Below, piece after piece: positions 573-20,728 of a stretch of 64,000 bases of DNA (within the stretch, counting starts at the first letter, position 1; each line of letters begins with the position of its first letter). This DNA comes from Chloroflexota bacterium. Its GTDB lineage: Bacteria > Chloroflexota > Dehalococcoidia > Lucifugimonadales > UBA3495. The stretch is from positions 1,746-65,745 of the forward strand of contig JAPPGG010000023.1 of NCBI GenBank assembly GCA_028875055.1, in the 5' to 3' direction. Position numbers and translations under genes: made by a program. Below the pieces are notes generated by a model. That model was not told the origin of the DNA and searched no databases. It saw only the letters and a program-made list of their open reading frames with translations.

Positions 573-955
573 ATGTCCTGCCTGGGGAGGTGGGGACTTC
601 AGGCCCCACCTCGTTGGCTCTACCCAAGGGATGGCTGCAACGGGCCCTTTCCCTTTTCCCTGAAGCGTCGCGGGAGCGCTGCCCGGGGTTGACGCGGCGT
701 CATTGGGAGGATGGTAGCGGGGCTGCCAATGGGTTGCCAATGGGTTGAAGGCGCCGCGGTAATTCTTGACTGACTTTTGAAATATAGTACCAGAAGGTAA
801 CGCCCTATGCGGAATTGGCCCGCCGATAACGCGGGGCAGCGCCTCCGCAATCGTCCTGGGCCCTGCCTGGACCGGCCACGGAATTGACAAGGCAGGTGGG
901 GTCTGTTGAAATTGGGCCATCACCGGACAGAATGCTGAGCATGGAGGAGAGCGTT

Positions 956-1939
956 ATGGCAGGCAGGACATTCATCTACGTCGGGGCCGAGGCCGATGGG
1001 CTCTATCGCAAGGAGGCGGGCGATTCCCGCTGGGAGAAGCTGGCCAAGGGTATGCCGCCCTCCCCGCAGGTACGCGCCATCGTCGTGCACCCCGAAGACT
1101 CCGGCACCATCTTCGTCGGTACCCAGCGGGGTATCTACCGCTCCAGGGATGGCGGCGACAGCTTCGAGCGCATGAACCTGACCGAGGGTCGCATCGTCTG
1201 GTCCATCAAGTTCCATCCCCACGACCCCAGCATCATGTTCCTGGGCACCGAGGGCTCCGAGGTGTTCAAGAGCACGGATGGAGGCGAGAACTGGGAGTAT
1301 CTGTCCACCGTATCCAATCCCGATGCCGTTCAGATGGCATTTGCCACCCGCATTCTGGGTATCGGCATCGAGGCGAGCGACACGGACCAGATGTACGCCG
1401 CCCTGGAAGTCGGCGGCGCCGCTCACAGTTCCGACGGCGGCAAGACCTGGACCATCGTCAACAGTGTTTTTGAGGGCGACGTGGACCTGCTGGACCTGCA
1501 CGGCGTAACCGTTGGTGTTGACGAGTCCGTGTTCATTTCCAACCGCACCGGGGTCTGGCGCACCCGCGACCGCGGCCGGACCTGGGACGACCTCCAGTTC
1601 GAGAACTTTTCCAACATCCGCTACTCTCGCGGTGTCGAGGTTGCTCCCAACGACCCCAGCACCCTCTACGCCTGCGTCGGCCTGAACTTCGGCAGCGAAG
1701 AGGGCGGCATCCTCCGCTCCACCGACGGCGGCAACAGTTGGAGCAGGTTCGACCAGGGCATTGAGCCGGCCAGCACCACCTTCGGCATCGCCGTAAACGA
1801 CCGCGCTCCCGAGCAGGTGTACTTCTGCACTCGCAAGGGCCAGGTGTTCGGCACCCACGACGGCGGCGCCACCTGGCAGGGCCACGACCTTCCCGAGATT
1901 GCTGCCAACGTCAAGGCCATTGCCTGCACTTCGGCCTAG
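956..1939 (+). CDS. Asp-box/BNR-repeat beta-propeller protein (Ycf48/VPS10-like), no signal peptide
   Basis: Six S/T-x-D-G-G-x-[ST]-W/F Asp-boxes; GGAGGAG RBS before ATG 956. Confidence 0.85.
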   Translation: MAGRTFIYVGAEADGLYRKEAGDSRWEKLAKGMPPSPQVRAIVVHPEDSGTIFVGTQRGIYRSRDGGDSFERMNLTEGRIVWSIKFHPHDPSIMFLGTEGSEVFKSTDGGENWEYLSTVSNPDAVQMAFATRILGIGIEASDTDQMYAALEVGGAAHSSDGGKTWTIVNSVFEGDVDLLDLHGVTVGVDESVFISNRTGVWRTRDRGRTWDDLQFENFSNIRYSRGVEVAPNDPSTLYACVGLNFGSEEGGILRSTDGGNSWSRFDQGIEPASTTFGIAVNDRAPEQVYFCTRKGQVFGTHDGGATWQGHDLPEIAANVKAIACTSA

Positions 1940-2031
1940 CCGGCCCCGGTTCCATTGGCGGGGTAGGTCGGCGCGGAGCGATCTCCCTGCCCCTGCAGCC
2001 TCCCTGCAACCGTTCAGGGGCCAGGGGTAGG

Positions 2032-2100
2032 GGTCCAGAATTGGAGGGATTTCCGTTCCAGCCAGCCCCGTCATTTCGCCGAAAGCCGGCATCCTGGTAG
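2032..2100. repeat. Partial copy of MITE family B (GGTTCAGAATTG end + GTCAT..CCG-GAAA-GCCGG..ATCC REP hairpin)
   Basis: ggtccagaattggagggatttccgttccagccagccccgtcatttcgccgaaagccggcatcc matches the copies at 23793 and 25610. Confidence 0.75.
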
Positions 2101-2469
2101 GCAGGAAGACCCGCCACATATGGAATCAGAGGCTTCCGGATGGCGAGTTTCACAGCTATGGCGGTTTCAGGCAGGAAGACCCCCTGAAGGGGAACAGTTG
2201 CGCCTCCGTGCGCGTCAGCCATGCCCCCACCAGGTTCCTGACAAGATTTTTGAAGGGCCGCCCAATCTGGACGGCTCTTCATTTTCCCCACAGGCGCTTC
2301 CCGGTTCGCCTCCAATACGGTATGCGCACCGGATGGCGGTGCTGCGCTGTTCGACTTGAACAAACCGGTTGCGAAAAGCATCCATAGGTCATCCTGTAGT
2401 TATGATTTTCCTTCGCCCGTCTGCCTGCCGCGCCTCAAAGAGCGGTTGATATTGCGCTGAGATGCAGGA

Positions 2470-2499
2470 TTGACATTACCCATTTCAGGTGTGTAGAGT
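2470..2499 (+). promoter_or_regulatory. Putative sigma70 promoter for the ABC operon
   Basis: TTGACA-N18-TAGAGT about 180 nt upstream of the SBP start. Confidence 0.4.
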
Positions 2500-2680
2500 T
2501 GCTCAACTATTATTGCAGGGCTTGAATTTGCGCTCCTCCGCGATCGCCGTTTCCGGATTGCATCATGATTCGGCAGGTTGCCGGGCCGGATGACCAGTGA
2601 GGCAGTTGCGCCGATGCGAGCCTGACAGTACAGGGCCGGTACCAGGTCCAATACCCATAACAAAGGAGACGCACAGAGAC

Positions 2681-4531
2681 ATGGTAAGTACCCAGTACGC
2701 CCGGGTATTCAGGCTTGCCCTCTTTTCCGCAGCGCTGCTTATGATTGTGGCCTTGGCCTGCGGAACATCGGCGCCTGAGGCTCCCCAGGCCCCTGAAAGC
2801 GGATCCACCTCCCAGCAGGCAGCCACCCAGCAGTCTTCTCAGCCATCCACGGGCCAGGAAGCCGCTCCCCAGCAGCAGGCCAGTTCCGGGCAGAGCCAAA
2901 GCGCCGCGCAGGACTCCGCCCCGCCGCCTACCAGGGTCCTCGCCGCCGCCACCGCGACTCCGCTGCCGCCGGCCATCCAGGCCGAGCCCAGCGCCGATGC
3001 CACCGAGGGCCTCGTTGACTTTGATATCAAGGACCCGGTGATAGACCCCGACCGTTCCAGGCAGGCTGAGGGCAAAATGGTCCTTGCCTACCACACGGCC
3101 CTCAGCCCCAAGTGGCTGGACCCCCAGGTGGCACCGGCCTCGCGGACTCCCTACTCCGCCTTCCTGCAGGCCGTGTTCGACCCCCTCATCGGGGCCATGC
3201 CCAACGGCCGGTTCGTGTATCTGCTGGCGGAAGACCTGGAAATGACCGACGACTTCAGGAAGGCTACCTTCCGTCTGCGCGAGGGCATAACCTTCCATAA
3301 CGGCGAACCCGTCACCACTGAAGACGTGAAGTTCTCCTACGAGAACTACTCCGGCGCCAATGCCGACATCTACCAGGAAAAGACCGAGCGCATCGAAATA
3401 GTGGACGAGCGCACCATTACCTTCTACTTCAATGAGGCGTTCATTGATTTCCTGGAGTTGTACGGCTCTGAGGCCTCGGGAGCCGGTTTCATCGTCCCCA
3501 AGGCCTACTACCAGGAGGTGGGACCCGAGAAGTTCATCGAGGCCCCCATCGGTACCGGCGCTTACAAGATTGTGGGGCAGACCACCGGCCAGTCCGTGAT
3601 CATGGAAGCCTACGAGGACTACTGGCGGAAGGTCCCCAACATCGAGACTATCGAGACAAAGGGCGTCCCCGAACTGGCCTCCAGGGTCGCCGCCCTGAAG
3701 ACCGGCGAAGTGGACGTGGCCTACTTCGTCACCGGGGCCCTGCTTCAGGATGCCATCGAAGACCCCAACATCCAGGTGGACCCCAACAACTCCGCTCCCT
3801 TCTGGCTGTTCTTCCCAGGCTACGAGGAGCCGGACAACCCCTTCCACGACAAGCGGGTGCGCGAGGCCGTAAGCCTGGCAATGGACCGCGAGTTCCTGTC
3901 GGCCACCGAGACCCAGAGCCTCGCCATTCCCACGGGGAACTTTATTCCCCCCGGCAAGGGTGACTACTTGGACCGACCGGTTCCCGAATACAATGTGGAA
4001 AAGGCCAAGCAGCTGATGGCCGAAGCAGGATATGCCGAAGGCTTTGAGCTGGACGCCTTCACCCCCTTCCCGCCCGTATTCTCCCTGGCAGAGAGGATAA
4101 TGGACTCCCTCAGGGAGATCGGCATCAAGAGCGAGCTAAACGTGACCCAGCGTCCCGTCTTCCTCAGCATGCTCCGGGAGCACCGGGCCGGATTCCCCGG
4201 CACACAGATCGCCTTCTCCATCTCCACCGGCCCGCCCAATGCCGCCGGTTACTTCCGGGCCTTTGGCCTTTGCGAGCAGGGCTCTTCGGTGATCTGCGAC
4301 GACCACATCGACGCCAGGATGGCCGAGTACGAATCCAGCCTGGACCTGGAAGAACGCTCTGCCATCGTCGAAGAGTTGCAGGCCTACATCCTGGACGAGC
4401 ATATCTTCGTGCCGGTGTACATCAACGCCTTCGCCATGGGCGCCGGCCCCAAGATCAAGGGTGATATTGCAGACTATTCAATGGTTTCCACGTCGCTGTT
4501 CCCGTATGAGGACATCGAGATAAACCCGTAA
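2681..4531 (+). CDS. ABC transporter substrate-binding lipoprotein, family 5 (peptide/nickel)
   Basis: Lipobox (VALAC), Q/S/P-rich linker, SBP_bac_5 motifs (F.LREG.TFHNGEP.T.EDV.FS; PIGTGAY); AAGGAG RBS. Confidence 0.93.
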   Translation: MVSTQYARVFRLALFSAALLMIVALACGTSAPEAPQAPESGSTSQQAATQQSSQPSTGQEAAPQQQASSGQSQSAAQDSAPPPTRVLAAATATPLPPAIQAEPSADATEGLVDFDIKDPVIDPDRSRQAEGKMVLAYHTALSPKWLDPQVAPASRTPYSAFLQAVFDPLIGAMPNGRFVYLLAEDLEMTDDFRKATFRLREGITFHNGEPVTTEDVKFSYENYSGANADIYQEKTERIEIVDERTITFYFNEAFIDFLELYGSEASGAGFIVPKAYYQEVGPEKFIEAPIGTGAYKIVGQTTGQSVIMEAYEDYWRKVPNIETIETKGVPELASRVAALKTGEVDVAYFVTGALLQDAIEDPNIQVDPNNSAPFWLFFPGYEEPDNPFHDKRVREAVSLAMDREFLSATETQSLAIPTGNFIPPGKGDYLDRPVPEYNVEKAKQLMAEAGYAEGFELDAFTPFPPVFSLAERIMDSLREIGIKSELNVTQRPVFLSMLREHRAGFPGTQIAFSISTGPPNAAGYFRAFGLCEQGSSVICDDHIDARMAEYESSLDLEERSAIVEELQAYILDEHIFVPVYINAFAMGAGPKIKGDIADYSMVSTSLFPYEDIEINP

Positions 4532-4545
4532 GGTTCGCCGGGGCT

Positions 4546-4668
4546 GTCGTCAATTTGAAGATAGGTGTCTCCGGGTTCTCTGTTTGGTCGTGTCCCCGAA
4601 GGCGGGAACCCCAACGGCCTGGGTCACAATCCCCGCTGGCGCGGGAACTATGCGGATCATTTGACGGC
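4546..4668. mobile_element. MITE family C (about 123 bp; TIR GTCGTCAA[A/T]TTG) containing REP-like hairpins
   Basis: Imperfect TIRs gtcgtcaatttg / catttgacggc; same length and layout as 38914..39035. Confidence 0.65.
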
Positions 4669-4788
4669 TCCCCTGGAGTGAATGGGGAACCGTGACAGCC
4701 GCTTCCCACGGGCGTCGCCCTCGGGGAAGCGGTATGGTTCTCCGGATCCCAACGGAGCTTTCCCTTCAGGCAGTAGCTCGGAGGTATA

Positions 4789-5724
4789 GTGAAGACCTTT
4801 ATCGCCAAGAGGCTCCTCTCCAGCCTGGTAACCCTGCTGGTGTTGAGCATGATCATATTCGCCCTGGTGCGCGCCTCGGGCAACCCCGCCGAGCTTCTGT
4901 ACGAATACCCCGGGGCTCGGGAAGAGGACATAGCCCGCCAGACGGCGGCCTGGGGCCTGGACAAGTCGTGGCCCGAGCAGTACGTCTCCTTCGTATGGAA
5001 TATTGCCCGCTTCGACTACGGCCAGTCCTTCCAGTACGGCACCTCGGTTCGTTCCCTCTATTTTGACCGGCTGCCCAACTCCCTGCTGCTGGCCTTCTGG
5101 GCCTTCCTGATTTCCATGGTCATAGGTATCCCGTTGGGCATTATGTCCGCCGTCAAGGTGGACTCCTGGTGGGACAGCGTGGGTAAAACCTTCGCTCTGC
5201 TGGGACTGTCGGTGCCTTCCTTCTTTGTTGCCTTATTGCTGGTGCTGTTATTTGGCGTTAAGCTGGAATGGTTGCCCTTCCTGGGCAAGGCTGAAGGCTT
5301 CTTCGACTGGCAGCACCTGATTCTTCCGTCCCTCGCCCTGGGCTGGTTCTTCTCCGGGGCCATGCTCCGGCTCACCCGTTCCAGCATGCTGGAAGTCCTG
5401 GGCAGCGAGTACATCAAGCTTTGCCGGCTAAAGGGCCTTCCCGAGACAGTGGTTATCGTCAAGCACGCCCTTAAGAATTCTTTCATTCCCGTGCTCACCC
5501 TGGCCGCCGTTAACCTGGTCGTAATGATCAACGTGGCGGTGGTCGTGGAGGTCGTATTCTCCTGGCCCGGCATCGGACGTTTGCTCTATGACGGCCTGAT
5601 CAATCGGGACTTCCCCCTGGTGCAGGGCGTGGTGGTTATGGCCGGCGTTATGATTGTGGGCACCAACTTCGTGGTGGATGTTCTTTACGGTTATCTCGAC
5701 CCCCGAATTCGACTGACCAGGTAG
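4789..5724 (+). CDS. ABC transporter permease (DppB/OppB-like)
   Basis: TM helices, EAA-like loop RSSMLEVLGSEYIKLCRLKGL, FSWPGIG motif. Confidence 0.95.
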   Translation: MKTFIAKRLLSSLVTLLVLSMIIFALVRASGNPAELLYEYPGAREEDIARQTAAWGLDKSWPEQYVSFVWNIARFDYGQSFQYGTSVRSLYFDRLPNSLLLAFWAFLISMVIGIPLGIMSAVKVDSWWDSVGKTFALLGLSVPSFFVALLLVLLFGVKLEWLPFLGKAEGFFDWQHLILPSLALGWFFSGAMLRLTRSSMLEVLGSEYIKLCRLKGLPETVVIVKHALKNSFIPVLTLAAVNLVVMINVAVVVEVVFSWPGIGRLLYDGLINRDFPLVQGVVVMAGVMIVGTNFVVDVLYGYLDPRIRLTR

Positions 5725-5732
5725 GTTGCGAT

Positions 5733-6644
5733 ATGGCAAGTGACCAGATATTAGTTACCTCTCCCCCCTCGGGGGCAGAGCACGTTTCGGCGGTGGCCCA
5801 CCGGTCGCTGGCAATATTGAGGGAGGCGCCCAAGCTGCCCGTGGGCATAATCCTGTTTGTGGCGCTGGTGGCAATTTTTGCCCCGCTCCTGGCTCCCCAC
5901 GACGCGGAGACATCCGTGAAGCCTATCAAGATTTTCGCTCCCGCCATTTACGCCGGCGGGACCTGGGATACAGCCCTGGGCACCGATTTCCAGGGCCGCG
6001 ACATACTCAGCCGCCTGATTTATGGGGCCAGGACCTCCCTGATCATCGGGCTTCTGGGAACGGTATTCGCCGGGATTCTCGGGGTAACGCTGGGCATCGT
6101 CTCGGGCTACATGGGTGGCCTATGGGACCAGGTTATCATGCGGATAACCGACGCCAAGCTGGCCTTGCCCTCGCTGGTCTTTGGCATTTTCCTGGCCGCT
6201 GTCCTCAGCCCCGGCCTGTGGACCATCATCCTGATCCTGATGATCGTCTTCTGGACGAGGTACGCCCGGGTAATACGCGGCGAAGTCCTCAGCCTCCGTG
6301 AGCGGGACTTCGTCAAGCTGGCCGAGGTTACCGGCGCCGGCAAAATCCGCGTAATGTTCCGTCACATCCTGCCCAACATTATGAACACCGCCATGGTCCT
6401 GTTCAGCCTCACCGTGGGCGTTGCCATCATCCTGGAAGCTTCTCTCAGCTTCCTGGGCGTGGGTGTCCCGCCCCCTACTCCCACCTGGGGCAACATGCTG
6501 GCGGACGCGCGCCCCACCCTGATTTCCGAACGCTGGACCCTGACCGTCGCCCCCGGTATCTGCATAATGCTGCTGGTGCTGGCCGCCAACCTTCTGGGCG
6601 ACTGGATGCGGGTGCGCCTGGACCCTCAACTGAGGAACCGATGA
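5733..6644 (+). CDS. ABC transporter permease (DppC/OppC-like)
   Basis: LGTDFQGRDILSRLIYGARTSL, HILPN, EASLSFLG.G motifs. Confidence 0.95.
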   Translation: MASDQILVTSPPSGAEHVSAVAHRSLAILREAPKLPVGIILFVALVAIFAPLLAPHDAETSVKPIKIFAPAIYAGGTWDTALGTDFQGRDILSRLIYGARTSLIIGLLGTVFAGILGVTLGIVSGYMGGLWDQVIMRITDAKLALPSLVFGIFLAAVLSPGLWTIILILMIVFWTRYARVIRGEVLSLRERDFVKLAEVTGAGKIRVMFRHILPNIMNTAMVLFSLTVGVAIILEASLSFLGVGVPPPTPTWGNMLADARPTLISERWTLTVAPGICIMLLVLAANLLGDWMRVRLDPQLRNR

Positions 6645-6786
6645 TGGCCGTTTCAGTACCCCTTCCCTCTCGCTGGGGGAAGGTCGGGATCGGCGCAACC
6701 TCCGTGTGGAGGTCGCCGCCCCGGTGTTGAACCGGTCGGTTATGGATGTCTGGAACAGCTTTTAAAAACTCGAGGAAGCGATTGCT

Positions 6787-7774
6787 TTGGTAACTGCAAC
6801 CAAGACTTTGCTGAAGGTCAAGGACCTGTACGCCCAGTTCACCGGCTTTGGGGGCGCCCGGGTGGTTCGGGCCATTGACGGTATCAATTTCTCCCTCGAC
6901 CAGGGGGAGACCATGGGCCTGGTCGGTGAGTCGGGCTGCGGCAAGACCACCACCTGCCACGCCATCTTCCGGCTGCTTCCCCCCGCCGGCAGGATCGTCT
7001 CCGGCTCCATAGAGTTCGATGGCCAGGACCTGATGCAGGTCAGCGACGGCGAAATGCGCAACATCCGGGGCCGTGACATGGGAATGATCCTTCAGGACCC
7101 CATGGCCTCCCTGGACCCCCTCTTCACCATCATGGACCAGGTGGCCGAACCGGCACACCACCACCGGGGCATCCGGGGCGGCACTCTCCGCGAGCGGGTG
7201 GTGGACCTGCTGCGGTCGGTGCGTATCCCCTCTCCGGAAGTGAGAATGAGGGAATTCCCCCACCAGATGAGCGGGGGCATGCGCCAGCGTATCGTCGGCG
7301 CCATCTCCCTTTCCGGCGGCCCCAAGCTGATTGTCGCCGATGAACCCACCACCAACCTGGACGTTACGATTCAATTGCAGTATTTGAACCTGCTGCGGGA
7401 CCTCCAGCAGGAAACGGGCGTTTCCCTGATATTCGTAACCCACAACCTGGGCATCGTTGCCAAGATGTGCGACAAGGTTGCCGTAATGTACGCCGGCAAA
7501 ATTGTCGAGCAGGGGAGCGTGCGGGATATCTACAACAACCCCCGTCACCCCTACACCCAGGCCCTCATCCAGTCCATCCCCCGCCTGGGCAACAAGGACC
7601 CTCTCTACGTGATTCCGGGGCAGCCTCCCAACCTGGCAGAGCTGCCTACCGGCTGCGCCTTCCACCCTCGCTGTCCCTTCGCCACCGAGAAGTGCATCAA
7701 CGAGGAACCACCCTACGTTTCATTTGGCGACGGACAGGAGTCCAAGTGCTGGCTGTCCGTAGAGGATGCAAAGA

Positions 7775-7782
<8 letters not shown>
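6787..7782 (+). CDS. ABC transporter ATP-binding protein (DppD/OppD-like)
   Basis: Walker A GESGCGKT, signature [13 protein letters not shown]-terminal CAFHPRC zinc motif. Confidence 0.95.
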
Positions 7783-8743
<961 letters not shown>

Positions 8744-9054
8744 AGGGAAAACGGTCCATTTTCCCCTGGGCCCGCCGAAAGTCCCGAAATTTTTCCCGGG
8801 GCGCGCGGCTTCAAGCTGCGACCCTGCGGTGGCTTGCCGGCTCCGTATCGCCATGTTTCCTGTCTCGACCCATCCCATGGCGTCGCTCCCCCGTACTCGA
8901 TTCCCTCGGCGCGATGCCCTGGAGAGTTGCTCTGCAGACTCGGGCGTGACGGTCTGGGCCCTGGAAAATCGCCCTCCGGGCCAAAGCCGGCAAATCGTTT
9001 TGACCACGTCAAGGCCCCTGCAGGGTGAACGGCTGCCATCGAGGCCTGTGCCGG

Positions 9055-9251
9055 CAGGGCAATCGCGTTATAGAAACGGGCAAAAGGCGGCACAAAATCG
9101 GTAGGCAAGAGTCATTTCGCCCTGAGCGTGCCGAAGGGCCTGGAGTCCTTGTACTCAGCCCGGTTGCGGGTAGGGAAGCTGGTTCCAGGGATAGATTTCA
9201 GATGCTTCGGCTTTGCTCAGCATGACATTCAATTGAAGCGCGGTTGCCCTT
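9055..9251. mobile_element. MITE family A (about 196 bp; TIR CAGGGCAAT..ATTGCCCTG) enclosing a REPIN-like inverted pair
   Basis: Internal ~140 bp nearly identical to 42784..42924; contains GCCCTGAGC.TGCCGAAGGG ... GATGCTTCGGC..TGCTCAGCATGAC. Confidence 0.8.
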
Positions 9252-9327
9252 GAAGCCGCTGCCGGCTGATGGTTCGCGGACCGGGATACTATTGTAGAAT
9301 GGTAGCCGGTCGCGTTCGCGGAGGAAA

Positions 9328-11091
9328 TTGAGCTCTCTATCAGTGAATCAGTCCATCAGGTACGAGGCGGACGAGCCTTGTCCGATCTGGATATCCCTGG
9401 GCATTGGCCTGCAGGGTGTGGTTTTTGCCCTGGCTCCCCTGGTGGTCGTCGTGGCGGTTACCGCTCGGGCGGGCGGCCAAAGCGAAAGTTACCTCTCGTG
9501 GGCCGTATTCGCTGCCCTTGTAATTGCGGGGTCGCTCACCGCCCTGCAGTCCAGCCGGATATGGCGGTTCGGCTCCGGGCACGTGCTCATCATGGGCGCC
9601 ACTCCCAACTTTGTGGCCATATCCGTGCTGGCATTGGTCCAGGGAGGGCCGGCCCTGCTGGCCAGCCTCATTGTCGTCGCCTCCTTTTTCTACCTCTCCC
9701 TTTCCCAGTGGCTGCCCTTGCTGCGCAGGTTTATCACCCCCGTAGTTTCCGGCACGGTCCTGATGTTGATTGCCGCCGCGGTGCTGCCCATTTCCCTGGA
9801 CCGGGTGCATGAAGTCCCCGCCGGCGCACCCGCGGCGGCAGGACCGGTAATTGCCGGCCTGTCCCTGGTCGCGTTTGTAGGGCTGGCTTTGCGCGCATCC
9901 GGTGCGTGGCGCCTCTGGTCGCCCATAATCGCTGTGGGCGTGGGTAGCATCGTCGGTGCCCTGTTCGGCGTGTACGATTTTCAGCGCATCCTTGATGCCC
10001 CCTGGTTCGGCATAACCTTTGGCGGCTTCTCCGGGTTCGACCTTAACCCCGGCGTTGGTTTCTGGTCCCTGCTTCCCCTGTTTGTCATAGTAACCCTGGT
10101 GGGCGGCATCAAGAACATTGGCGACAACGTGGCCGTGCAGCAGGCATCCCGCCGTCAGGCCCGGGCCACCGACTTCCGCCGGGTACAGGGATCCCTCAAC
10201 ACCAACTGGCTGGGAATCCTGGCCTCGGGGGTGGCCGGCACTCCCCCTACTACCGTTTACTCCTCCACCAGCGTATCCCTGATAAACCTGACCGGGGTGG
10301 CCGCGCGCCGCGTGGGTTTTGTCATCGGGGCCTCCCTTGTCGTCCTCGCCCTGTTCCCCAAGCTGCCGGCCCTGCTCCTCACCATCCCTTCCCCGGCTAT
10401 GGGGGCCTATCTGCTGGTCGCCACCGGACTGCTCTTCATGGAAGGGGTGCGCACGGTAATTCAGGCAGGCCTCGACCTTCAGAAGGTAATAGTGGTGGGA
10501 ATCTCCTTCTGCCTGGGCGCGGGGCTGGAACAGCAGACCATTTTCACGGATCTCTTTGGCGGTCCCTGGGGTGGCGTCCTGGACAATGGCATGCTGATGG
10601 GCGCCCTGACGGCCATCCTGCTCACCCAGTTCCTTGACCTCACCAGCCCCCACAGGGGAGGCCGCCTCCGGGTCAGCCTCGACCTGTCCTCCTTGCCCGC
10701 AATTCAACAGTTCGTCGTCCAGCAGGCCTCCAGGCTCGGCTGGAACGAGGCTTCCACCCAGCGCCTGCAGTCCGCCGCCGAGGAGACCCTGATGTCCCTG
10801 GTTCAGGGGAGTGAAGCGCATACTTCCGGGGAAGCGGCTCGCCTTATACTGGTGGCCCGTCCCGGCTTCGGATTGATAGAGCTGGAATTTGTGGCCGCTT
10901 CCGACGAAGAGAATCTCGAAGACCGGCTGGCCTGTTTGAGCGAGGAGACCGAAGCCATGGATGAAGGCGATTTATCGCTGCGCCTGCTGCGCCACTACGC
11001 CACCTCAGTGAATCACCAGAAATACTACGGCCTGGACATCATCACCGTGAGGGTCAGGGGTTCCCGCCCGCCTGGCGGAGTAGCCCCATGA
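9328..11091 (+). CDS. NCS2 (UraA-fold) permease fused to a C-terminal RsbW/SpoIIAB-like (HATPase_c_2-like) domain
   Basis: About 13-14 TM segments with NCS2-like pattern (ITPVVSGTVLMLI; LTGVAARRVG; FPKL.ALL.TIP..MG). Soluble C-terminal ~140 aa (L.LSSLPAIQQFV...GWNE...RLQSAAEE...GDLSLRLLRHYATSVNHQ...DIITVRV) follows the anti-sigma kinase pattern. Confidence 0.8.
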   Translation: MSSLSVNQSIRYEADEPCPIWISLGIGLQGVVFALAPLVVVVAVTARAGGQSESYLSWAVFAALVIAGSLTALQSSRIWRFGSGHVLIMGATPNFVAISVLALVQGGPALLASLIVVASFFYLSLSQWLPLLRRFITPVVSGTVLMLIAAAVLPISLDRVHEVPAGAPAAAGPVIAGLSLVAFVGLALRASGAWRLWSPIIAVGVGSIVGALFGVYDFQRILDAPWFGITFGGFSGFDLNPGVGFWSLLPLFVIVTLVGGIKNIGDNVAVQQASRRQARATDFRRVQGSLNTNWLGILASGVAGTPPTTVYSSTSVSLINLTGVAARRVGFVIGASLVVLALFPKLPALLLTIPSPAMGAYLLVATGLLFMEGVRTVIQAGLDLQKVIVVGISFCLGAGLEQQTIFTDLFGGPWGGVLDNGMLMGALTAILLTQFLDLTSPHRGGRLRVSLDLSSLPAIQQFVVQQASRLGWNEASTQRLQSAAEETLMSLVQGSEAHTSGEAARLILVARPGFGLIELEFVAASDEENLEDRLACLSEETEAMDEGDLSLRLLRHYATSVNHQKYYGLDIITVRVRGSRPPGGVAP

Positions 11092-11142
11092 GAACCTCCT
11101 CCAGCGCCCGTTTCCCCGCCGGCGCAGCCTTGCGGACGCTCC

Positions 11143-11239
11143 TCCTGGTGGCCCACAGCAGGTAGGGGCGGGTTTCAAACCCGCCCTGTCCGCATCCCGA
11201 CCCTTCTGCCGGTGCAATACCACCTGAAGTGAAACGCAA
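11143..11239. repeat. MITE/REP family D (GTAGGGGCGGGTTTCAAACCCGCCC core; right end CCACCTGAAGTGAAACGC)
   Basis: Homologous to 20505..20555 and 23620..23718. Confidence 0.75.
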
Positions 11240-11453
11240 TCTTGCTGCCCGGCCGCTCAAAGCAGTTTAGCCGCTGGCCCTGCGTGAAGCTGAAGCGACC
11301 TTCCCGAAGCACTCGGCATTGACCTCTGGCGCCTTCCCCCACGGCCGCAAAACGTGAGATTGAGTTCACAACAGGTTGACCCACGGCCCTTGTATTGCTA
11401 GGCTTGAAGTATCCGGTATTGCTTCAACCCCATCACATTTGGAGGAATCTCTC

Positions 11454-11690
11454 ATGGCGACCACCGAGGAAAGAATCAGGAAACTGGTAGATGATAACCT
11501 GGAAATCGAAGGGCGGACGGCCGGCACTCCGTTGCACCCGGAATACAGCTTGAGGGACTCGGGTGTTTCGTCCGTAGCCTTCGTGGCCTTTGCCAAGCTG
11601 GTGGCCGATGAGTTTGGCGTCACCTTCTCCCCGGAAGACTGCGCCAAGTACAACACTGTTGGCGAGCTGATAACCCGCCTGGAGGGTTAA
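11454..11690 (+). CDS. Acyl carrier protein (free-standing; SupB-like)
   Basis: 78 aa acidic helical protein with L.DSGVSSV motif (Ser at the phosphopantetheine position), EFGV.F, TVGEL; GGAGG RBS. Confidence 0.85.
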   Translation: MATTEERIRKLVDDNLEIEGRTAGTPLHPEYSLRDSGVSSVAFVAFAKLVADEFGVTFSPEDCAKYNTVGELITRLEG

Positions 11691-11744
11691 GCCTGCCTGG
11701 TCCGCAGGTCCTTTCGCAGCTTCCCGAGGGACTTCCCCAGGGGT

Positions 11745-12503
11745 ATGGCGTTGAGAGCCCGGTCAGCGAGTAATACTGGCCCTGGAGCTGACGACGCTCA
11801 CCTTTGGTGGAGTCCTTTTTGCGTGGCCGGCGAGGTTGCCGTCACCCACGTGGACCTGGCTCCCCATCCCGCGCGGGAAGCATCGGCCCTGGCCTGGCTG
11901 GACGAGGTCGAGCTGGCCCGGCGGGAAAGGTACCACTCCGGGCCCCGCCGCTGCTTCGTCCTTTGCCGCGCTGCCCTGCGCTCCCTCCTCTGCGCAGAAC
12001 TGGGGTGCCGAAACCAGCAACTCAGGTTCCAGGAATCCGAATACGGCAAGCCCTTTGCGCTGGTTGACGGCCAACCCGCTTCCATAGGCTTCAACGTAAG
12101 CCACAGCGGCAGCCACGGTCTCATCGCCTGTGCGCCCCGCGGACGTCTGGGTATTGATGTTGAGGAAATAGCGCCGCCCCGCCACCTGGAATCCCTCATT
12201 GAGGCCGTTATGGGCCCCCAGGAGCAGGCCGAGTTGAGCCGCATGTCCGGGGATGCCCAGCTCCGCCAGTTCTTTCGCCTGTGGACCTGCAAGGAGGCGT
12301 TGATCAAGGCCCTGGGGACCGGCTTCTCCACCGACATCTCCAGGTTCCAGGTTCCGGCCGGTCTCCGCCAGGGGGCCAGCTCCGGCGTCTTCCGGTTCGA
12401 GCAAATGCCCGGCGTGGCGTGGCAGTTGGACGATATCGGCAGCGCGGAGTTCGCGGCCGCCCTGGCACGGGAATTGCTTCCTGCGGAATCTGGGTTATCA
12501 TAA
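11745..12503 (+). CDS. 4'-phosphopantetheinyl transferase (Sfp-type)
   Basis: YGKP, FNVSHS, LGIDVE, FFRLWTCKEALIKALGTG. Start codon uncertain. Confidence 0.93.
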   Translation: MALRARSASNTGPGADDAHLWWSPFCVAGEVAVTHVDLAPHPAREASALAWLDEVELARRERYHSGPRRCFVLCRAALRSLLCAELGCRNQQLRFQESEYGKPFALVDGQPASIGFNVSHSGSHGLIACAPRGRLGIDVEEIAPPRHLESLIEAVMGPQEQAELSRMSGDAQLRQFFRLWTCKEALIKALGTGFSTDISRFQVPAGLRQGASSGVFRFEQMPGVAWQLDDIGSAEFAAALARELLPAESGLS

Positions 12504-12548
12504 GCGGAGACTCGGCAGCCTGGACCAGCGACCCCAAAGGTACCATGC

Positions 12549-13460
12549 GTGTTTGAACATCCCGACTTCCAGTGGCAATTGCCCGAACCCCTTTCCGTTC
12601 TCGAAGTGGCGGTGGACGCCGAGACTGTCATCCTGGTGCGCCGCCACGGCAACCCGGGTGGCCCCCGGCTGGTGCTGAGCCACGGTAACGGGATGGCCAT
12701 CGACCTCTACTACCCCTTCTGGTCCATACTCTCCGATACCTTTGACCTGGTGATGTACGACCTTCGCAACCACGGGTGGAACAAGGTCAGCTCACTGGAT
12801 GGACACAACATCCCCACCCTGGTCTCCGACCACGACCTGGTCCTGGAGGCCATCGAACAGGAATGGGGACGGAAGCCGCAGGCCGGCGTGTTTCACTCGG
12901 TCTCGGCCCTCATTACCCTGCTCTCTCCCACCCAGGGAGACCGCTACTCGGCCCTGGTCCTTTTCGACCCTCCCATCTGCAAGCCCGGTCGCAGCCACCG
13001 GGAGTTTGAGGCCGCTGCCGTACAGGCCGCCGGCTTCGCCCTTCGGCGCACCGACAAGTTTCGCCATAGGGAAGAGTTTGCCGAAGTCTTGCCCCTCCAT
13101 CCGGCTTTCCGCAGAATGGTGCCCGGCGCCTTCGACCTGATGGCCCTCACCACCCTTCGTCCCAGCGATGGCGAAGAGGGATTCGAGCTTCGCTGCCCCA
13201 GGGACTACGAGGCCCAGATCTTCAGTTATGCCAGCGTTTACGGGGTGGCCGTGGACTTCGAGTCCCTAGTCTGCCCGGTGAAGGTAATCGGCGCCGACCC
13301 GACGCTGCCCTTCTCCTACCTGCCCACCCTGGATTTGAGCGACATTCTCAGCGTGGACTACGACTTCCTCCCCGAGGCCACCCACTTCCTCCAGCTGGAA
13401 AGGCCCCAGGAGTGCGCTGCCGCCCTGAGGGACTACCTGGCAAGCCTCGCAATCTCCTGA
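12549..13460 (+). CDS. Alpha/beta hydrolase (possible thioesterase/acyltransferase)
   Basis: HGNG oxyanion motif, YDLRNHG, non-canonical nucleophile elbow FHSVSA, C-terminal THFLQLE His. Confidence 0.85.
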   Translation: MFEHPDFQWQLPEPLSVLEVAVDAETVILVRRHGNPGGPRLVLSHGNGMAIDLYYPFWSILSDTFDLVMYDLRNHGWNKVSSLDGHNIPTLVSDHDLVLEAIEQEWGRKPQAGVFHSVSALITLLSPTQGDRYSALVLFDPPICKPGRSHREFEAAAVQAAGFALRRTDKFRHREEFAEVLPLHPAFRRMVPGAFDLMALTTLRPSDGEEGFELRCPRDYEAQIFSYASVYGVAVDFESLVCPVKVIGADPTLPFSYLPTLDLSDILSVDYDFLPEATHFLQLERPQECAAALRDYLASLAIS

Positions 13461-13724
13461 AATTGCCCCGAACTTGAGCGCGTCCCCAGCAGGGAAAAGG
13501 GAGTTCGGCTGGCCCCGTCCCTTCACCGCCCGCTTTAATTCCGGTGTGAGGCCCTGCAACGGACCGTACCGTCGGGCTTGTTCAATATTGTTTTGGGTTC
13601 TATAAGCCAGGCCCCTTTGCGTATAAAGTCCTGGGACAAAGGGGGGATAATCCCTGCGGCGTCCCGGGCAATTGACGCGTCGTGATGTTGATAGTACAGA
13701 GCCGCTCACTGTCCGCATCGACAG

Positions 13725-15338
13725 CTACAACTCCGACGGCGCTGGCGCGGCCAGCGCTTCCCCCTCGTTCCAACCCGGCCCATTTACCTGGTCGAACGTT
13801 TCCACGACTTCAACCGGCGGCGGCGCGGTCAGCCGGGTGACTATGTAGGCGGCAACGATGGAGGCGACGAAACCGGGTACTCCGGGGTTGATGTTCCAGA
13901 CACCCAGGGCTTCCATGTGTTCGACTGTCGCGTGGAAGCCCAGCAGGTCCGCCACGGTGGAGTACCGTTCGTAACCCAGGCCAGCCAGCCACCACCAGGT
14001 GGAAACGATAGTACCGGTAGCCACCGCCGCCAATGCGCCCCAGCGGTTGAAGCGGCGCCAATACAGCGCGAGGATCAGGGCGGGACCAAAGGCGGCCCCC
14101 ATTCCACCCCACGCCAGGGACACCAGGGCGAAAACCGACTCCGGGGAAACTATGGAGATAGCAGCCGCGATAATGCCTACCAATACCAGCATGGCCCTGC
14201 CCATCCAGACCCGAGCCTGAGTCCGCATCGAATAGGTAATTCTCTGGATAACAGGCAGGTCGTCGGTGGCGATGGCGGAGGCCAACAACAGTTGGGAGTC
14301 GGCGGTGCTCATGACGGCGGCGATGACCGCGGTGAGCAGCAGGCCGGCCACTACCGGATGGAAAAAGGTCTCAGCCACTATGAGGTAAAGCTTCTCGGCG
14401 TCGGGCAATACGATTCCCCGGTCCAGCAGGGCCGGGGCGGCGACCAGGCCCATCAGCAGGGCGAACAGGAAAATCAGCACTACCCAGGCTGCGCCTACAT
14501 TCCTGCTGCGAAGGATGTCGCTTTCGCGCTGGACGGCCATGAAACGGGAAATAATGCGATGCGCCCCGAAGGCGCCCAGGCCCCAGCCAACGGAAGAAAG
14601 GAAGAACAGGACCCCGAGCTGGGAGTTTTCCTTGTCGGTGAAGGGATTCCAGAAGCCGGGAGCGGTGGACTCCAGGCCCTGGAAGGGGTTGCTCACCGTC
14701 AGGATCAAAGTGACTGGAATGATGATGAAGCCCGCCAGCATTATCAGGGACTGAAAGACGTCCGTGCGGGAAACGGCCAGGAAGCCGCCGATAAAGGTAT
14801 AGGAGACCACGGCAATCAGGGAAATAATGACCCCAATATTGTGGCCTTGTCCCATGTCGTCCAGGCCAAACACAACCTCCAGCAGCTTGGCGCCTGCGAT
14901 GAGGCCGGAACAGACGTAAAGCGTGATGAAGTAGATGCCAATCAGGCCCGAAAGTGTGCGAAGGGCGCCGCTGGTATCGCCAAAACGCTTTTCCAGGAAC
15001 TCGGGAAGGGTCAAGGAATTCTCCGCCGCCATGGAATAGCGACGGATTCGCCGTGCCAGCACGGTCCAGGCGAACCAGTGGCCCAAAATTATGGAAGCGA
15101 CGGTCCACAGGTGCATCATGCCTGCGGCAAAGGCCAGGCCAGGCAAGACCAGCATGGTCCAGCCGCTGGCCGCGGATGATGCCGCGCTCAGGGCCGAGGT
15201 GAAAAACCCCATCTTGCGGCCCCCCAGCACGTAGTCGGACATATCGTCCATGTGCCGGGACCGGACGACGGCAATACTGATCAGCACAGCGAAGTAGGCG
15301 ATGAAAACACAGAGTATCCAGATGGCGTTGGCGGGCAT
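13725..15338 (-). CDS. putP: Sodium/proline symporter (SSS family, PutP-like)
   Basis: DYVLGGR, ALSAA.S..SGW, TLPEFLEKRF, YTFIGGFLAVS.TDVFQ, AAVMSTADSQLL. Confidence 0.85.
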   Translation of the reverse strand: MPANAIWILCVFIAYFAVLISIAVVRSRHMDDMSDYVLGGRKMGFFTSALSAASSAASGWTMLVLPGLAFAAGMMHLWTVASIILGHWFAWTVLARRIRRYSMAAENSLTLPEFLEKRFGDTSGALRTLSGLIGIYFITLYVCSGLIAGAKLLEVVFGLDDMGQGHNIGVIISLIAVVSYTFIGGFLAVSRTDVFQSLIMLAGFIIIPVTLILTVSNPFQGLESTAPGFWNPFTDKENSQLGVLFFLSSVGWGLGAFGAHRIISRFMAVQRESDILRSRNVGAAWVVLIFLFALLMGLVAAPALLDRGIVLPDAEKLYLIVAETFFHPVVAGLLLTAVIAAVMSTADSQLLLASAIATDDLPVIQRITYSMRTQARVWMGRAMLVLVGIIAAAISIVSPESVFALVSLAWGGMGAAFGPALILALYWRRFNRWGALAAVATGTIVSTWWWLAGLGYERYSTVADLLGFHATVEHMEALGVWNINPGVPGFVASIVAAYIVTRLTAPPPVEVVETFDQVNGPGWNEGEALAAPAPSEL

Positions 15339-15940
15339 CGTTGGTAACCTCGGTAAATTCGACCATCGGCAAGGGCCGGGTGGCCTTTCAGGCGGAAGAG
15401 GACAAGTTCTTGAAACAGAATTCAAGCTAGTGCATCGATGTCAGGAGCCTTCCTCCTGATACTACAGTAGCAGATTTGCAGAAGTTGTTTGTAGTGGCAT
15501 TGTTTGGCTATGGCTTGATGGCGCCGTCTCCGCCATGACCAGTAGAGGGTGAAATCTGGCGGTGGGCTTTCCCGCCATACCAGTCGGGCGCGCAACCGCC
15601 GCGCCTCTGGAATCGTCACGGGAATCAGTTCCTCATTGGGGCCGTGGCAGCCCCGCTTCTCCCGGTTCCAGAGCCCGTTGCCTTACTGCCGCCAGGTAGG
15701 CGTGGGGTCAGAACGGCCAGAGCCTGCCCCGCGCCCCGAAAGGGGGGTGATGTGCCGGTGCCAGCCGTCCCAGCGCCGTGCTCCAGTCGCTGGTCCATTC
15801 ATACTCGGCCTGCATCTCATGGACATATTCAAAGCAGGTATCGTAGTGAATGTGTACTTCCCTGGTTCTGTGGTTCACCTTGAGGACGCAGCCCTTTAGT
15901 TGGCTCTACCGTAGAACGGCCTTAAGGGGTTTTACTCTCT

Positions 15941-16150
15941 TCACGCTGGCCACCAACAGCGGCGACAGGGTACCGGCAAAAACCCCGCGCTCAGCGCTGC
16001 GTCCCAGGCCTCACCAAGGGTATCGAAAGGACCTAACTGGTTTGGATCTTGCCTGTTTGCGGCAGACAGAGAACACGGGGGATTATCAGCTTGGTGAACC
16101 CGGGCAACCTGGTCGGAGCGGTCAAGATAGACATTAAACTTAGCCGACAT
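15941..16150 (-). CDS. Small hypothetical protein, possible Zn-binding (H..C ... CxxC)
   Basis: 69 aa: VHQADNPPC ... GPFDTLGEAWDAALSAGFLPVPCRRC. Confidence 0.55.
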   Translation of the reverse strand: MSAKFNVYLDRSDQVARVHQADNPPCSLSAANRQDPNQLGPFDTLGEAWDAALSAGFLPVPCRRCWWPA

Positions 16151-17680: not shown

Positions 17681-20056
17681 ATGCATGCGAGAGAAGATCC
17701 GAAGCAGGATATCGAAAACCTGCGGAAAAGGCTTTCAAGGTTGGCGGAGGCCAGCATCCGCATAAACGAAAGTTTGGACTTTGACACTGTATTGCAGGGG
17801 GTTCTTGACTCTGCGTGTTCCTTGACGGGAGCCCAATACGGCGTCCTCACCCTGATGGATGAGTCGGGCAACCTTCGGGACCTGCTATTCTCGGGTATGA
17901 CCGAGCAACAGGGTCAACAAGTTCAGGACATACCGGATGGAAGGCGACTGTTTGAACATTTAAGTAGTTTCCTGGAGCCGCTGCGGGTTCCCGACTTGCT
18001 GGGGCATATCAAGTCTCTGGGCCTGCGGGATCTTCAACTTCCGATTCCAGTTGGGCCGGAAGTGCCCTTTATGGCGACTCCTGTGCTACACAACGGGGAA
18101 CGCGTGGGTATCTTCTTCCTCGCCAATATTGCTCCAGAGGATGAGTTCAGCCAGGAAGACGAGGAAACCCTGATAATGTTTGCAGCCCAGGCTGCGTTGG
18201 TGGTATCCAACGCCCGCAGGTTCCGCGAAGAACAGAGGGCTAGAACCGATCTGCATACTCTCATCGAGACATCACCCATTGGTGTGGTGGTGATTGACGC
18301 CAAGACGGGCGCCCCGGTGTCATTCAACCAGGAGGCACGGAGGATTGTTGACGAGCTCAGGCAGCCGGACCAGGCGCCTGAGGAACTTCTGAACGTGATT
18401 ACGGTACGGAGAGGGGACGGAAGGGAATACTCCCTTCAGGAATTTCCTTTGTCCCGGTTGCTTGGCGAAGGAGAGACAATTCGGGCGGAGGAGATTTCCA
18501 TGCGGGTTCCCGAAGGGCGCAGCATCACTGTCCTGGTAAATGCTACTCCTATTCGTACAGATCCAGGGGAGGTTGGATCAGTCGTAATTACCCTTCAGGA
18601 CATGTCGCCCCTAGAGGAACTGGAGAGCTTGAGGGCTGAGTTGCTGGCCATAGTCAGCCATGAGCTTCGCACCCCTCTAACGTCCGTCAAGGGTTCCATA
18701 ACAACCTTACTCGATGCTTCAGCATCCTTGAATCCGGCAGAGGTGGCCCAGTTCTACCGAATCATCGACACCCAGGCCGACCGGATGCGCACAATGATTA
18801 GCGACCTGCTGGATGTGGCCCGCATCGGCATGGGCACGCTCTCTATTTCCCCTGAACCAACCGATATATGGATGCTGATTGAGGATGCCCGGACCGCCTT
18901 CCTGAGTGGACAAAGGAGACAGAGGCTGGAAATAGACGTTTCGCCGGGCATCCCTTTCGTTATGGCTGACCGGCTGCGTATTGTACAGGTATTGACCAAC
19001 CTGCTTTCCAACGCGGCCAGGCATTCGGAGGAATCCTCGCCCATCAAACTGGCTGTAAACTCGGAAGGCGTCCAGGTCGTGGTTTGCGTGGCAGACGAAG
19101 GCAGGGGGGTGCTTCCGGAGCGGTTGCCCCATTTGTTCCGAAAATTTACCTGGGCGGACGAATCCGAACGGGCGGGCAATGAAAGTACCGGCTTGGGTCT
19201 GGCAATCTGCAAGGGGATTGTCGAGGCTCATGGTGGCCGCATTTGGGCCGAGAGTGACGGTCTGGGCCAGGGGGCCAGGTTCACGTTCACCTTGCCCGTG
19301 GCAGGGGGGTCGGAAGCGCCAAGCGCGACCGTTGGTATGGTAGTGGACCGGTTTTCGGAGTCCTCGACACTGGAGCAAGTGCGAGTGCTGGTAGTTGATG
19401 ATGATCCCCAGGTCCTGAGACATGTCCGCGAAACATTGGTGCGTGCCGGTTGCGCTGCGATCGTTACGGGGGACCCGCAAGAAGTCATTCCTTTAGTTGA
19501 AAGGGAGGAACCTCATCTTGTCCTGCTAGACCTCGCTCTTCCAGGCACCGACGGTATTGCCTTGATGTCAGAAATAGCCGAGGTGTCTGATATTCCTGTT
19601 ATCTTCCTGTCCGCATACGGCAGAGAGGAAAACATCTCCCGGGCCCTGGACCTGGGCGCTGCGGATTACATAGTAAAGCCATTCTCCTCGATGGAGCTTG
19701 CAGCCAGGGTCAGGGCCGCTCTGCGTCAGCGAGCATTTGCCGAATCATTGGCTCCGTTTGTGTTGGGCGATTTGACCATTGACTTCACTAACCGACAGGT
19801 AACACTGTCTGGTCAACCAGTCCAGCTTACCGCCATTGAGTATCGGACACTGGCCGAACTGGCGGCCAATGCCGGACGTGTCCTGGCATACGAACATCTG
19901 CTCGGTCAAGTGTGGAATGAACCGGATGGGGGCGACTTTCGCCCAATGCGTACAGTAGTAAGCAGAATCCGGCACAAGTTGGGAGACGACCCGGATAGTC
20001 CGACCTATATATTCACCGAACCGAGGGTAGGTTACCGCATGGCTCGGGGCGGCTAG
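17681..20056 (+). CDS. Cytoplasmic hybrid histidine kinase/response regulator: GAF-PAS-HisKA-HATPase-REC-OmpR/PhoB wHTH
   Basis: H-box SHELRTPL, N-box LTNLLSNA, DEGRG, GLGLAIC..IVEAHGG; receiver VDDD/LLDL/KPF; KdpE-like tail LGDDPDSPTYIFTEPRVGYR. Confidence 0.93.
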   Translation: MHAREDPKQDIENLRKRLSRLAEASIRINESLDFDTVLQGVLDSACSLTGAQYGVLTLMDESGNLRDLLFSGMTEQQGQQVQDIPDGRRLFEHLSSFLEPLRVPDLLGHIKSLGLRDLQLPIPVGPEVPFMATPVLHNGERVGIFFLANIAPEDEFSQEDEETLIMFAAQAALVVSNARRFREEQRARTDLHTLIETSPIGVVVIDAKTGAPVSFNQEARRIVDELRQPDQAPEELLNVITVRRGDGREYSLQEFPLSRLLGEGETIRAEEISMRVPEGRSITVLVNATPIRTDPGEVGSVVITLQDMSPLEELESLRAELLAIVSHELRTPLTSVKGSITTLLDASASLNPAEVAQFYRIIDTQADRMRTMISDLLDVARIGMGTLSISPEPTDIWMLIEDARTAFLSGQRRQRLEIDVSPGIPFVMADRLRIVQVLTNLLSNAARHSEESSPIKLAVNSEGVQVVVCVADEGRGVLPERLPHLFRKFTWADESERAGNESTGLGLAICKGIVEAHGGRIWAESDGLGQGARFTFTLPVAGGSEAPSATVGMVVDRFSESSTLEQVRVLVVDDDPQVLRHVRETLVRAGCAAIVTGDPQEVIPLVEREEPHLVLLDLALPGTDGIALMSEIAEVSDIPVIFLSAYGREENISRALDLGAADYIVKPFSSMELAARVRAALRQRAFAESLAPFVLGDLTIDFTNRQVTLSGQPVQLTAIEYRTLAELAANAGRVLAYEHLLGQVWNEPDGGDFRPMRTVVSRIRHKLGDDPDSPTYIFTEPRVGYRMARGG

Positions 20057-20118
20057 GCCCTTTGGTCGCAGGCGAGCCTGACCAACAAGGGGCACGGAGG
20101 CAGCGCGACCCGGGCCGC

Positions 20119-20253
20119 CAGGAGAACGGCGCCTCTGCACTGTACACCTGCCACGCCACCGATCCTGAGGGCAGCGACAACGTTTACCAGGTGACGGTGG
20201 AAGCCGGCGACGATGGCGGGAATACTGCCAGTCTGCAGGCAATTGCCACGGTC
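20119..20253 (+). pseudogene. Remnant of a bacterial cadherin-like repeat with an internal deletion
   Basis: QENGASALYTCHATDPEG joined directly to SDNVYQVTVEAGDDGGNTASLQAIATV; no start codon or signal peptide. Confidence 0.5.
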
Positions 20254-20294
20254 CACCCCGTATCCGCCCTTGCCAAAAGGGCGCGGATAGAAAC

Positions 20295-20316
20295 AAAAAA
20301 CCCGCCCAAAGGCGGG
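20295..20316 (-). terminator. Rho-independent terminator downstream of tRNA-Ser
   Basis: Minus strand CCCGCC-TTTG-GGCGGG-TTTTTT. Confidence 0.8.
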
Positions 20317-20344
20317 AATATTGAGATCAGGGGAATTAATACTG

Positions 20345-20436
20345 TGGCGGAGGGAGTGGGATTCGAACCCACGATCCCAGTTTCCCAGGATAAGCGCTTA
20401 GCAGGCGCCCGCACTAGACCACTATGCGATCCCTCC
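20345..20436 (-). tRNA. tRNA-Ser(GCT)
   Basis: GGAGGGA acceptor stem, anticodon arm GGCGC-CTGCTAA-GCGCT, long variable arm, GGTTCGAATCC T-loop, encoded CCA; 92 nt. Confidence 0.97.
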
Positions 20437-20504
20437 ACAAAGCGGATTTCCAATATAGCAGATTGGGCCCCAGCCCACAATACGGCCCCAAATCAAGGCA
20501 GCTT

Positions 20505-20555
20505 TGCGATTCAGGTGGCTTTTAGCAGGCAGGGGCGGGATTCAAACCCGCCCTG
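20505..20555. repeat. Partial MITE/REP family D copy
   Basis: gcgattcaggtgg...aggggcgggattcaaacccgccc. Confidence 0.65.
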
Positions 20556-20728
20556 GCTTCTCTTAGGCCGTTCTGCCCGTGTGGTGCCACCTAAAATGGA
20601 ACCCATTCCCAAATCAGCTCTGAACAGTTACCGGCATTGTGGGTTTTTGACTTTCTCAACCATTGCTGATACTTTAGTGACTGCCCTCTTCCAGATACAA
20701 AACTGGGCCCCGGAGAAAGAAAACATCC

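Follow-up and report, generated by a model that had tools for sequence, protein, structure and literature searches.

What are a free-standing acyl carrier protein (ACP), an Sfp-type phosphopantetheinyl transferase (PPTase) and an alpha/beta hydrolase doing together where no synthase is encoded beside them? This question is raised by a stretch of 64,000 nucleotides from a Chloroflexota bacterium (assembly GCA_028875055.1, contig JAPPGG010000023.1, contig C73 below), referred to here as the window. The original prediction had described the three genes as co-oriented, and the open reading frame positions and Pfam matches agree (Table 1). It had also stated that the window holds no ketosynthase (KS), acyltransferase (AT) or adenylation domain, which is borne out by whole-genome searches with PF00109, PF00698 and PF00501 that place none on contig C73. 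The trio very probably corresponds to supB, supC and supD, lying in one unit with a supE-like permease gene and apart from supA, which encodes the synthase. The locus is a rearranged, split copy of a known cluster, since the synthase adjoins the trio in related assemblies, and this is the ordinary explanation for an apparently orphan module.

The sup cluster (sponge symbiont ubiquitous polyketide synthase, PKS) comprises supA to supE and was reportedly described by Fieseler et al. in 2007 and by Hochmuth et al. in 2010; apart from supE, its genes are given here the roles they are said to have. To place the window trio, one genome per species was scanned, which returned more than 574 hydrolase coding stretches; counts out of 80 refer to the best 80, at 60-86% identity to the window hydrolase. 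Their genomes belong in the majority to Dehalococcoidia/SAR202, and otherwise to Acidobacteriota, Gemmatimonadota, Latescibacterota, Binatia, Thermodesulfobacteriota, Opitutales and Acidimicrobiia, covering at least 8 phyla. Between phyla, identities of roughly 45-60% were seen. Names of samples and metagenome-assembled genomes (MAGs), together with PMC9426513, suggest a sponge origin for the trio-bearing genomes.

The order ACP-PPTase-hydrolase is found in 63 of the 80 species genomes. In 55 of the 80, a PKS stands directly upstream on the same strand, so that PKS, ACP, PPTase and hydrolase follow one another. This order was also seen in G004, G009 and G012, which belong to the genus, and in G049 and G058. 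The architecture of the PKS upstream of the orthologous trio is KS, AT, dehydratase (DH), C-methyltransferase (cMT), enoylreductase (ER), ketoreductase (KR), ACP, KS and a dead AT (AT0). The original prediction had held that a synthase adjacent in related assemblies would reduce the module to a rearrangement, and this is what these genomes display. A PKS lies within 10 kb in another orientation in 6 of the 80, and none is present in the flank in 19, five of which have a short flank. Among these 19 genomes with an unlinked trio, 13 have a Sup-type PKS at another location, in most cases in one uninterrupted frame of 3400-3500 aa. In G047, where no ACP could be detected, the PKS adjoins PPTase and hydrolase genes that lie on the strand opposite to it. 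Within the genus, 12 genomes have both PKS and hydrolase, one has the PKS only, one the hydrolase only and three neither (Fisher p=0.022).

The window shares its split layout, supE-ACP-PPTase-hydrolase, with G008, G001, G011, L058 and L061. In G001 and G011, which like G008 belong to the genus, the PKS is far away from the permease and the trio. In G008 the order is PKS, BNR-repeat gene, ABC transporter, permease, ACP, PPTase, hydrolase, and synteny with the window begins exactly at the end of its PKS, a second-type Sup PKS. At the corresponding place, the host genome has no remnant of a second-type Sup PKS and carries a permease paralogue instead. The genus has two Sup PKS paralogue types, whose identity to the methyltransferase-ER region of the host enzyme is about 73% for one and about 58% for the other; only the second type was found beside the trio there, and G005 and G015, among others, carry both PKS types and one hydrolase.

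Where, then, is the synthase of the host? Its assembly consists of 75 contigs, totals 3.75 Mb and is 98% complete. The genome search for supA or another type I PKS that had been advised at the outset returned exactly one type I PKS of Sup architecture, spread over contigs C68 and C75. Six KS matches were obtained in the genome and only two are of type I, namely C68:28-3210 (a KS-AT-DH N-terminus) and C75:42-7286 (DH-cMT-ER-KR-ACP-KS-AT). A detached supB/C/D-like module with a distant supA, one of the two possibilities first put forward, is supported by this and by the trio found directly behind such a PKS in related genomes. The genome also contains two PPTases, the one of the window and one on contig C42. 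The latter is AcpS-sized (169-aa open frame), so the window PPTase is the sole Sfp-type enzyme available to the PKS. Finally, three carrier domains were found: the ACP of the PKS, an AcpP adjoining FabD on C26 and the window ACP.

The domain content of the PKS gives a place to the free ACP. KS1 has its Cys-His-His residues, and AT1 has GHSVG together with an xAFH motif, which is malonyl-type. In relatives, the KS2 cysteine is kept in 35 of 35 sequences and the two histidines in 35 of 36 and 36 of 36. The position of the catalytic serine of AT2 is occupied by G, D or N in 37 of 37 (GQGVG in the host), and this AT is shortened. The PKS ends with the post-AT linker, and no carrier or thioesterase follows AT2. 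Because KS2 looks active, its AT is dead and the PKS has no thioesterase, and because this KS2 without an ACP of its own always precedes a discrete ACP and a serine hydrolase, the free ACP most likely serves PKS module 2 as its carrier, with the hydrolase as release enzyme. That the type II fatty acid synthase (FAS) elongates chains bound to SupB was also considered; this is less likely, as helix II of the window ACP is non-acidic, in contrast to that of AcpP.

The predicted phosphopantetheine site of the ACP is Ser40 (codon 11571-11573), in G-V-S-S-V; it lines up with the DSL serine found both in the host AcpP and in the ACP domain of the PKS, and the orthologues conserve it. A GGAGG lies 9 nt ahead of the ATG of the ACP gene. 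The PPTase translation carries GIDVE and WTCKEALIKA, corresponding to the G-x-D and W/F-x-x-K-E-A motifs, and has the features of a two-domain Sfp-type enzyme. Among NCBIfam models HetI matches best (E=1e-28), although neither it nor AcpT reaches its equivalog cut-off. An alternative start, GTG at 11823, was taken from the gene call in a near-identical public assembly and would give a protein of 226 aa.

The hydrolase has an oxyanion motif, HGNG, at residues 45-48 and an unusual elbow, G-V-F-H-S117-V-S (S117 codon 12897-12899), followed by Asp250 (codon 13296-13298) and His279 (codon 13383-13385). In an alignment of 24 sequences, the window protein and 23 homologues of 62-80% identity, H45, G46, N47, G48, H116, S117 and H279 are invariant and D250 is present in 23 of 24. 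Since its members are conserved in this way, the predicted Ser-Asp-His triad is intact despite a V-F-H-S-V-S elbow in place of G-x-S-x-G. In Pfam, the protein has no match to the thioesterase family PF00975 and matches only Abhydrolase_6, Hydrolase_4 and Abhydrolase_1. No close relative was found among solved structures searched with its sequence profile, which retrieved generic alpha/beta hydrolases from the PDB, the best being of KAI2/D14 type (E=8e-5, N-terminal half only). An AlphaFold2 model built from the 24-sequence alignment is of low confidence, with a mean predicted local distance difference test score of 59. Homologues number 2812 at E<=1e-10.

How could the trio work away from its synthase? 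A promoter-like element precedes the ACP gene in the window. Of 76 orthologous loci, 56 have the pattern TTGACN-N16-18-TANNNT, often TGn-extended, 30-69 nt ahead of the ACP start. As controls, the same pattern was searched upstream of the PPTase (0 of 71) and of the hydrolase (1 of 80), and in random 150-nt windows (0.5%). Loci in which supA ends immediately before the ACP gene have it too. A generic promoter/terminator scan gave nothing above background; it missed the window element because the -10 hexamer matches at 3 of 6 positions only. The element is a match to the consensus, but its conserved position across phyla argues for a separate promoter of supB-D. Being transcribed from it, as we propose, supB-D would be able to work in trans from another locus, and a separate promoter may account for a trio that is often found detached and tolerates relocation. 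The spacers had been described as short. This holds within the trio, with 54 nt between ACP and PPTase and 45 nt between PPTase and hydrolase; the gap between permease and ACP is not short, as it measures 362 nt, and it contains the element.

From these features a sequence of events can be proposed. SupC would convert both the free ACP, at Ser40, and the in-line ACP of SupA to their holo forms. Module 1 of SupA would then build a reduced, C-methylated acyl chain from malonyl units, and KS2 would accept this chain and condense it with malonyl held on the free ACP. As AT2 is dead, this malonyl would be loaded by AT1 or by FabD. SupD would hydrolyse the product from the free ACP or transfer it, and SupE would carry a substrate or the product across the membrane.

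The most serious competitor of this split-cluster explanation comes from the state of supA itself. Both PKS pieces run into about 51 nt of foreign sequence where their contigs end (C68:1-51 and C75:1-52). These ends form imperfect inverted repeats of about 20 bp with 17 of 20 matches, and a target duplication of 2-3 bp, TA/CTA, is present at both junctions. When the flanks are joined with one copy of the duplicated bases, an open frame results (…VQEMQLHNPLIFSDGD…), and over 1200 nt the joined flanks are colinear with G010 at 95.1% identity; G010, the closest relative, is uninterrupted at this site. In the assembly, the repeat closes 13 contig ends with its left end and 9 with its right end. 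The left end was found neither in the 16 remaining genomes of the genus nor, like the rest of the repeat, in the metagenome contigs searched. Only the terminal 51-52 nt of the repeat are assembled, its interior being missing; the TA duplication would fit IS630. As the repeat end occurs in this genome only among 17 of the genus, its expansion is recent. From these junctions, supA is interrupted inside the DH, at least in the bin consensus, by a recently expanded insertion sequence (IS)-like element.

The trio could accordingly be a relic, that is, true sup accessory genes left without a pathway since the element broke supA, and orphaned too recently to have decayed. The target duplication, the colinearity of G010 across the site and the restriction of the repeat end to this genome all speak for it, and decayed sup loci do exist elsewhere. 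G074 retains the AT0 tail only and G003 a 43-aa KS remnant, while L048 (7110-11974, in a 5.9-Mb genome) has a stand-alone KS of 453 aa, a 103-aa AT stump, ACP, PPTase, hydrolase and a permease fragmented across frames. Against a relic, all three frames of the window are intact and the trio is under purifying selection: the ratio of nonsynonymous to synonymous substitution rates (dN/dS) is 0.06-0.24 for the ACP, PPTase, hydrolase and permease genes in comparisons with G008, G001, G012 and the nearest relative, G010. In addition, a metagenome bin is a population consensus, and the insertion may affect part of the population only. We therefore regard a relic as unlikely. In G003, which has no detectable PKS, the three genes are likewise stop-free, dS there being too saturated to show lineage-specific constraint.

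Several points nevertheless count against a trio that serves a remote SupA. The first is the split of supA just described: with a repeat found at 13 or more contig ends sitting in the DH, action in trans is possibly not current, and the pathway may be off in these cells. The second is that 6 of the 19 genomes with an unlinked trio have no detectable Sup PKS at all, which leaves room for a SupA-independent role. In parallel, the chemical steps, namely the product of KS2, hydrolysis as against transfer and the direction of transport, are ones that we only infer. Orthology to the SupB, SupC and SupD deposited in 2007 (clones pAPKS18 and pSW1H8) is indirect, being proposed from architecture, distribution and the name of the permease. 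Among the listed homologues of the hydrolase and of the KS amplicon region there are no Sup-named proteins, only generic names. Lastly, no experimental demonstration of the product of a sup cluster was found in the literature within reach. A Rhodospirillales match of the KS amplicon region was set aside as a lone KS stump.

A further reading is that SupB, SupC and SupD, with SupE, form a self-contained carrier-and-release unit, equipped with a promoter and functional when SupA is remote, broken or gone. This is a speculative reading to which we give little credence. If it were true, the unit might take chains from another ketosynthase or from fatty acid synthesis, and it would explain why the trio is intact where supA is split by an IS, as in the host, reduced to a remnant, as in G003 and G074, or represented by KS-AT0 only, as in L048.

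As its second possibility, the original prediction had offered a synthase-independent system with the permease as importer of the acyl group that the ACP carries. In this reading, ACP, PPTase, hydrolase and permease would be a carrier system fed by an imported or FAS-derived acyl group and not by SupA. It could draw on the conserved promoter-like element of the trio, on the fact that about one species in four has the trio unlinked from the PKS and on intact frames in up to 6 genomes without a detectable Sup PKS. The comparison does not support it, and we hold it to be very unlikely. No acyl-ACP synthetase, adenylation domain or acyltransferase that could load the carrier is encoded on contig C73. 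Most genomes with an unlinked trio, 13 of 19, keep the PKS elsewhere, and within the genus the presence of the trio tracks that of the PKS. Where the PKS is missing, remnants of it lie beside the trio, and these indicate that it was lost recently rather than that the trio is independent. A KS2 that is conserved, accompanied by a dead AT and devoid of its own carrier requires an ACP of precisely this kind. As for a general Sfp-type PPTase that merely neighbours independent ACP and hydrolase genes, the generic Abhydrolase_6 match of the hydrolase and its lack of a close solved structure would suit it, but it is contradicted by the recurrence of the ACP-PPTase-hydrolase order across at least 8 phyla (63 of 80 genomes) and is hardly credible.

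The features of the locus are collected in Table 1, where the Pfam matches of the ACP, PPTase and hydrolase all exceed the curated cut-offs. An Rfam search of 8700-16000 gave no match.

Table 1. Features of the trio and its upstream region, in window coordinates
Feature	Position	Strand	Evidence or remark
SupE-like NCS2 permease, 587 aa, HATPase_c_2-like tail	9328..11091	+	Pfam Xan_ur_permease E=1.4e-35; directly upstream of trio
Promoter-like element TTGACC, 17 nt, TGC-TAGGCT	11376..11404	+	about 50 nt upstream of ACP start codon
Free-standing ACP (SupB-like), 78 aa	11454..11690	+	Pfam PP-binding (PF00550) 36.3 bits
Sfp/HetI-type PPTase (SupC-like), 252 aa	11745..12503	+	Pfam ACPS 65 bits and AASDHPPT_N 28.4 bits
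Alpha/beta hydrolase (SupD-like), 303 aa	12549..13460	+	Pfam Abhydrolase_6 43.7 bits

The permease is a frequent companion of the trio, as 45 of the 80 loci encode an NCS2 homologue no more than 10 kb from the hydrolase. Among these 45, the gene is convergent just downstream of the hydrolase in 39 and upstream and co-oriented, as in the window, in 3. The C-terminal tail of the window permease, its last 140 residues or so, weakly resembles an anti-sigma-factor kinase domain, to judge from HATPase_c_2, which is matched weakly (E=0.016) over positions 2-113 of a profile of 127, and from a match to the RsbA family (E=0.004). Further SupE-like permeases were noticed. A third NCS2 paralogue with the same tail, 49% identical to the permease at 9328-11091, occupies 3-923 of the window on the minus strand and extends upstream to C73:581. 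Another lies at C68:6144-7931, separated by about 3 kb from supA on its 5' side and beyond an FMO-like monooxygenase gene (C68:4245-5981, minus strand). In a Dehalococcoidia chromosome, L071, a second permease, 71% identical to that of the window, and a second free ACP are found at 18166-20687, 8 kb downstream of a canonical PKS-PPTase-hydrolase locus; this genome has three hydrolase paralogues at 68%, 55% and 43% identity.

Among the neighbouring genes, a BNR/sortilin-like repeat gene at 884-1939 and the five genes of a Dpp/Opp-type ABC transporter at 2597-8743, all on the plus strand within 884-8743, are syntenic with G008. On the other side, a PutP-like sodium/solute symporter gene (13725-15425, minus strand) is convergent with the hydrolase gene; it stands outside the conserved unit and is shared only with the closest relative, G010.

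The sup cluster is among the most abundant biosynthetic loci of sponge microbiomes. For a reconstitution of the pathway, the free ACP is probably the carrier that the otherwise ACP-less second module would use. Since the accessory genes appear to be a unit driven by its own promoter and are often unlinked from supA, mining for supA alone would miss needed parts. Across the genomes compared here, supA is repeatedly broken or lost and the accessory genes persist. Modestly useful additions to a known cluster are a role for the free ACP, a probable internal promoter and an IS-broken supA.

How does this arrangement compare with other known systems? In fungi, the highly reducing PKS LovB works with the esterase LovG, which releases its product in trans. 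Sup differs in having a second KS, a dead AT and a discrete ACP, in being bacterial and in showing no sequence relationship to LovG. Both systems have the order KS-AT-DH-cMT-ER-KR-ACP, lack a built-in thioesterase and rely on a separate alpha/beta-fold serine hydrolase to release the chain, in the case of Sup by prediction. In the same way, type II thioesterases (PF00975) are discrete serine hydrolases encoded beside a carrier-protein-dependent synthase, whereas the window hydrolase has no PF00975 match and an F-H-S-V-S elbow, not G-H-S-x-G.

Sponge symbionts have a second mono-modular PKS/FAS cluster, swf (sponge widespread FAS; SwfA, SwfB and SwfC) (PMC3908369). Unlike sup, swf is without cMT, free ACP, PPTase and hydrolase; in their place it has a radical SAM enzyme and a reductase-sulfotransferase. 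On one swf fosmid, a SupE-like permease is encoded beside anti-anti-sigma (STAS) genes (PMC3908369).

The closest counterpart remains the sup cluster, in which SupE of clone pAPKS18 is named a permease (Table 1 of PMC3908369) and whose enzymes have been proposed as makers of mid-chain methyl-branched fatty acids (PMC4245539). In the window, by contrast, the synthase gene is off-locus, on other contigs, and interrupted by an IS-like repeat, and the permease gene is upstream and co-oriented instead of downstream and convergent. What they have in common is an FAS-like, C-methylating small type I PKS, a free ACP, an Sfp-type PPTase, an alpha/beta hydrolase and a permease. They also share a spread over unrelated phyla, the bacteria that carry the trio being putatively sponge-associated; SUP-like clusters have been found in sponge MAGs of Chloroflexota, Acidobacteriota, Proteobacteria and Spirochaetota (PMC9426513).

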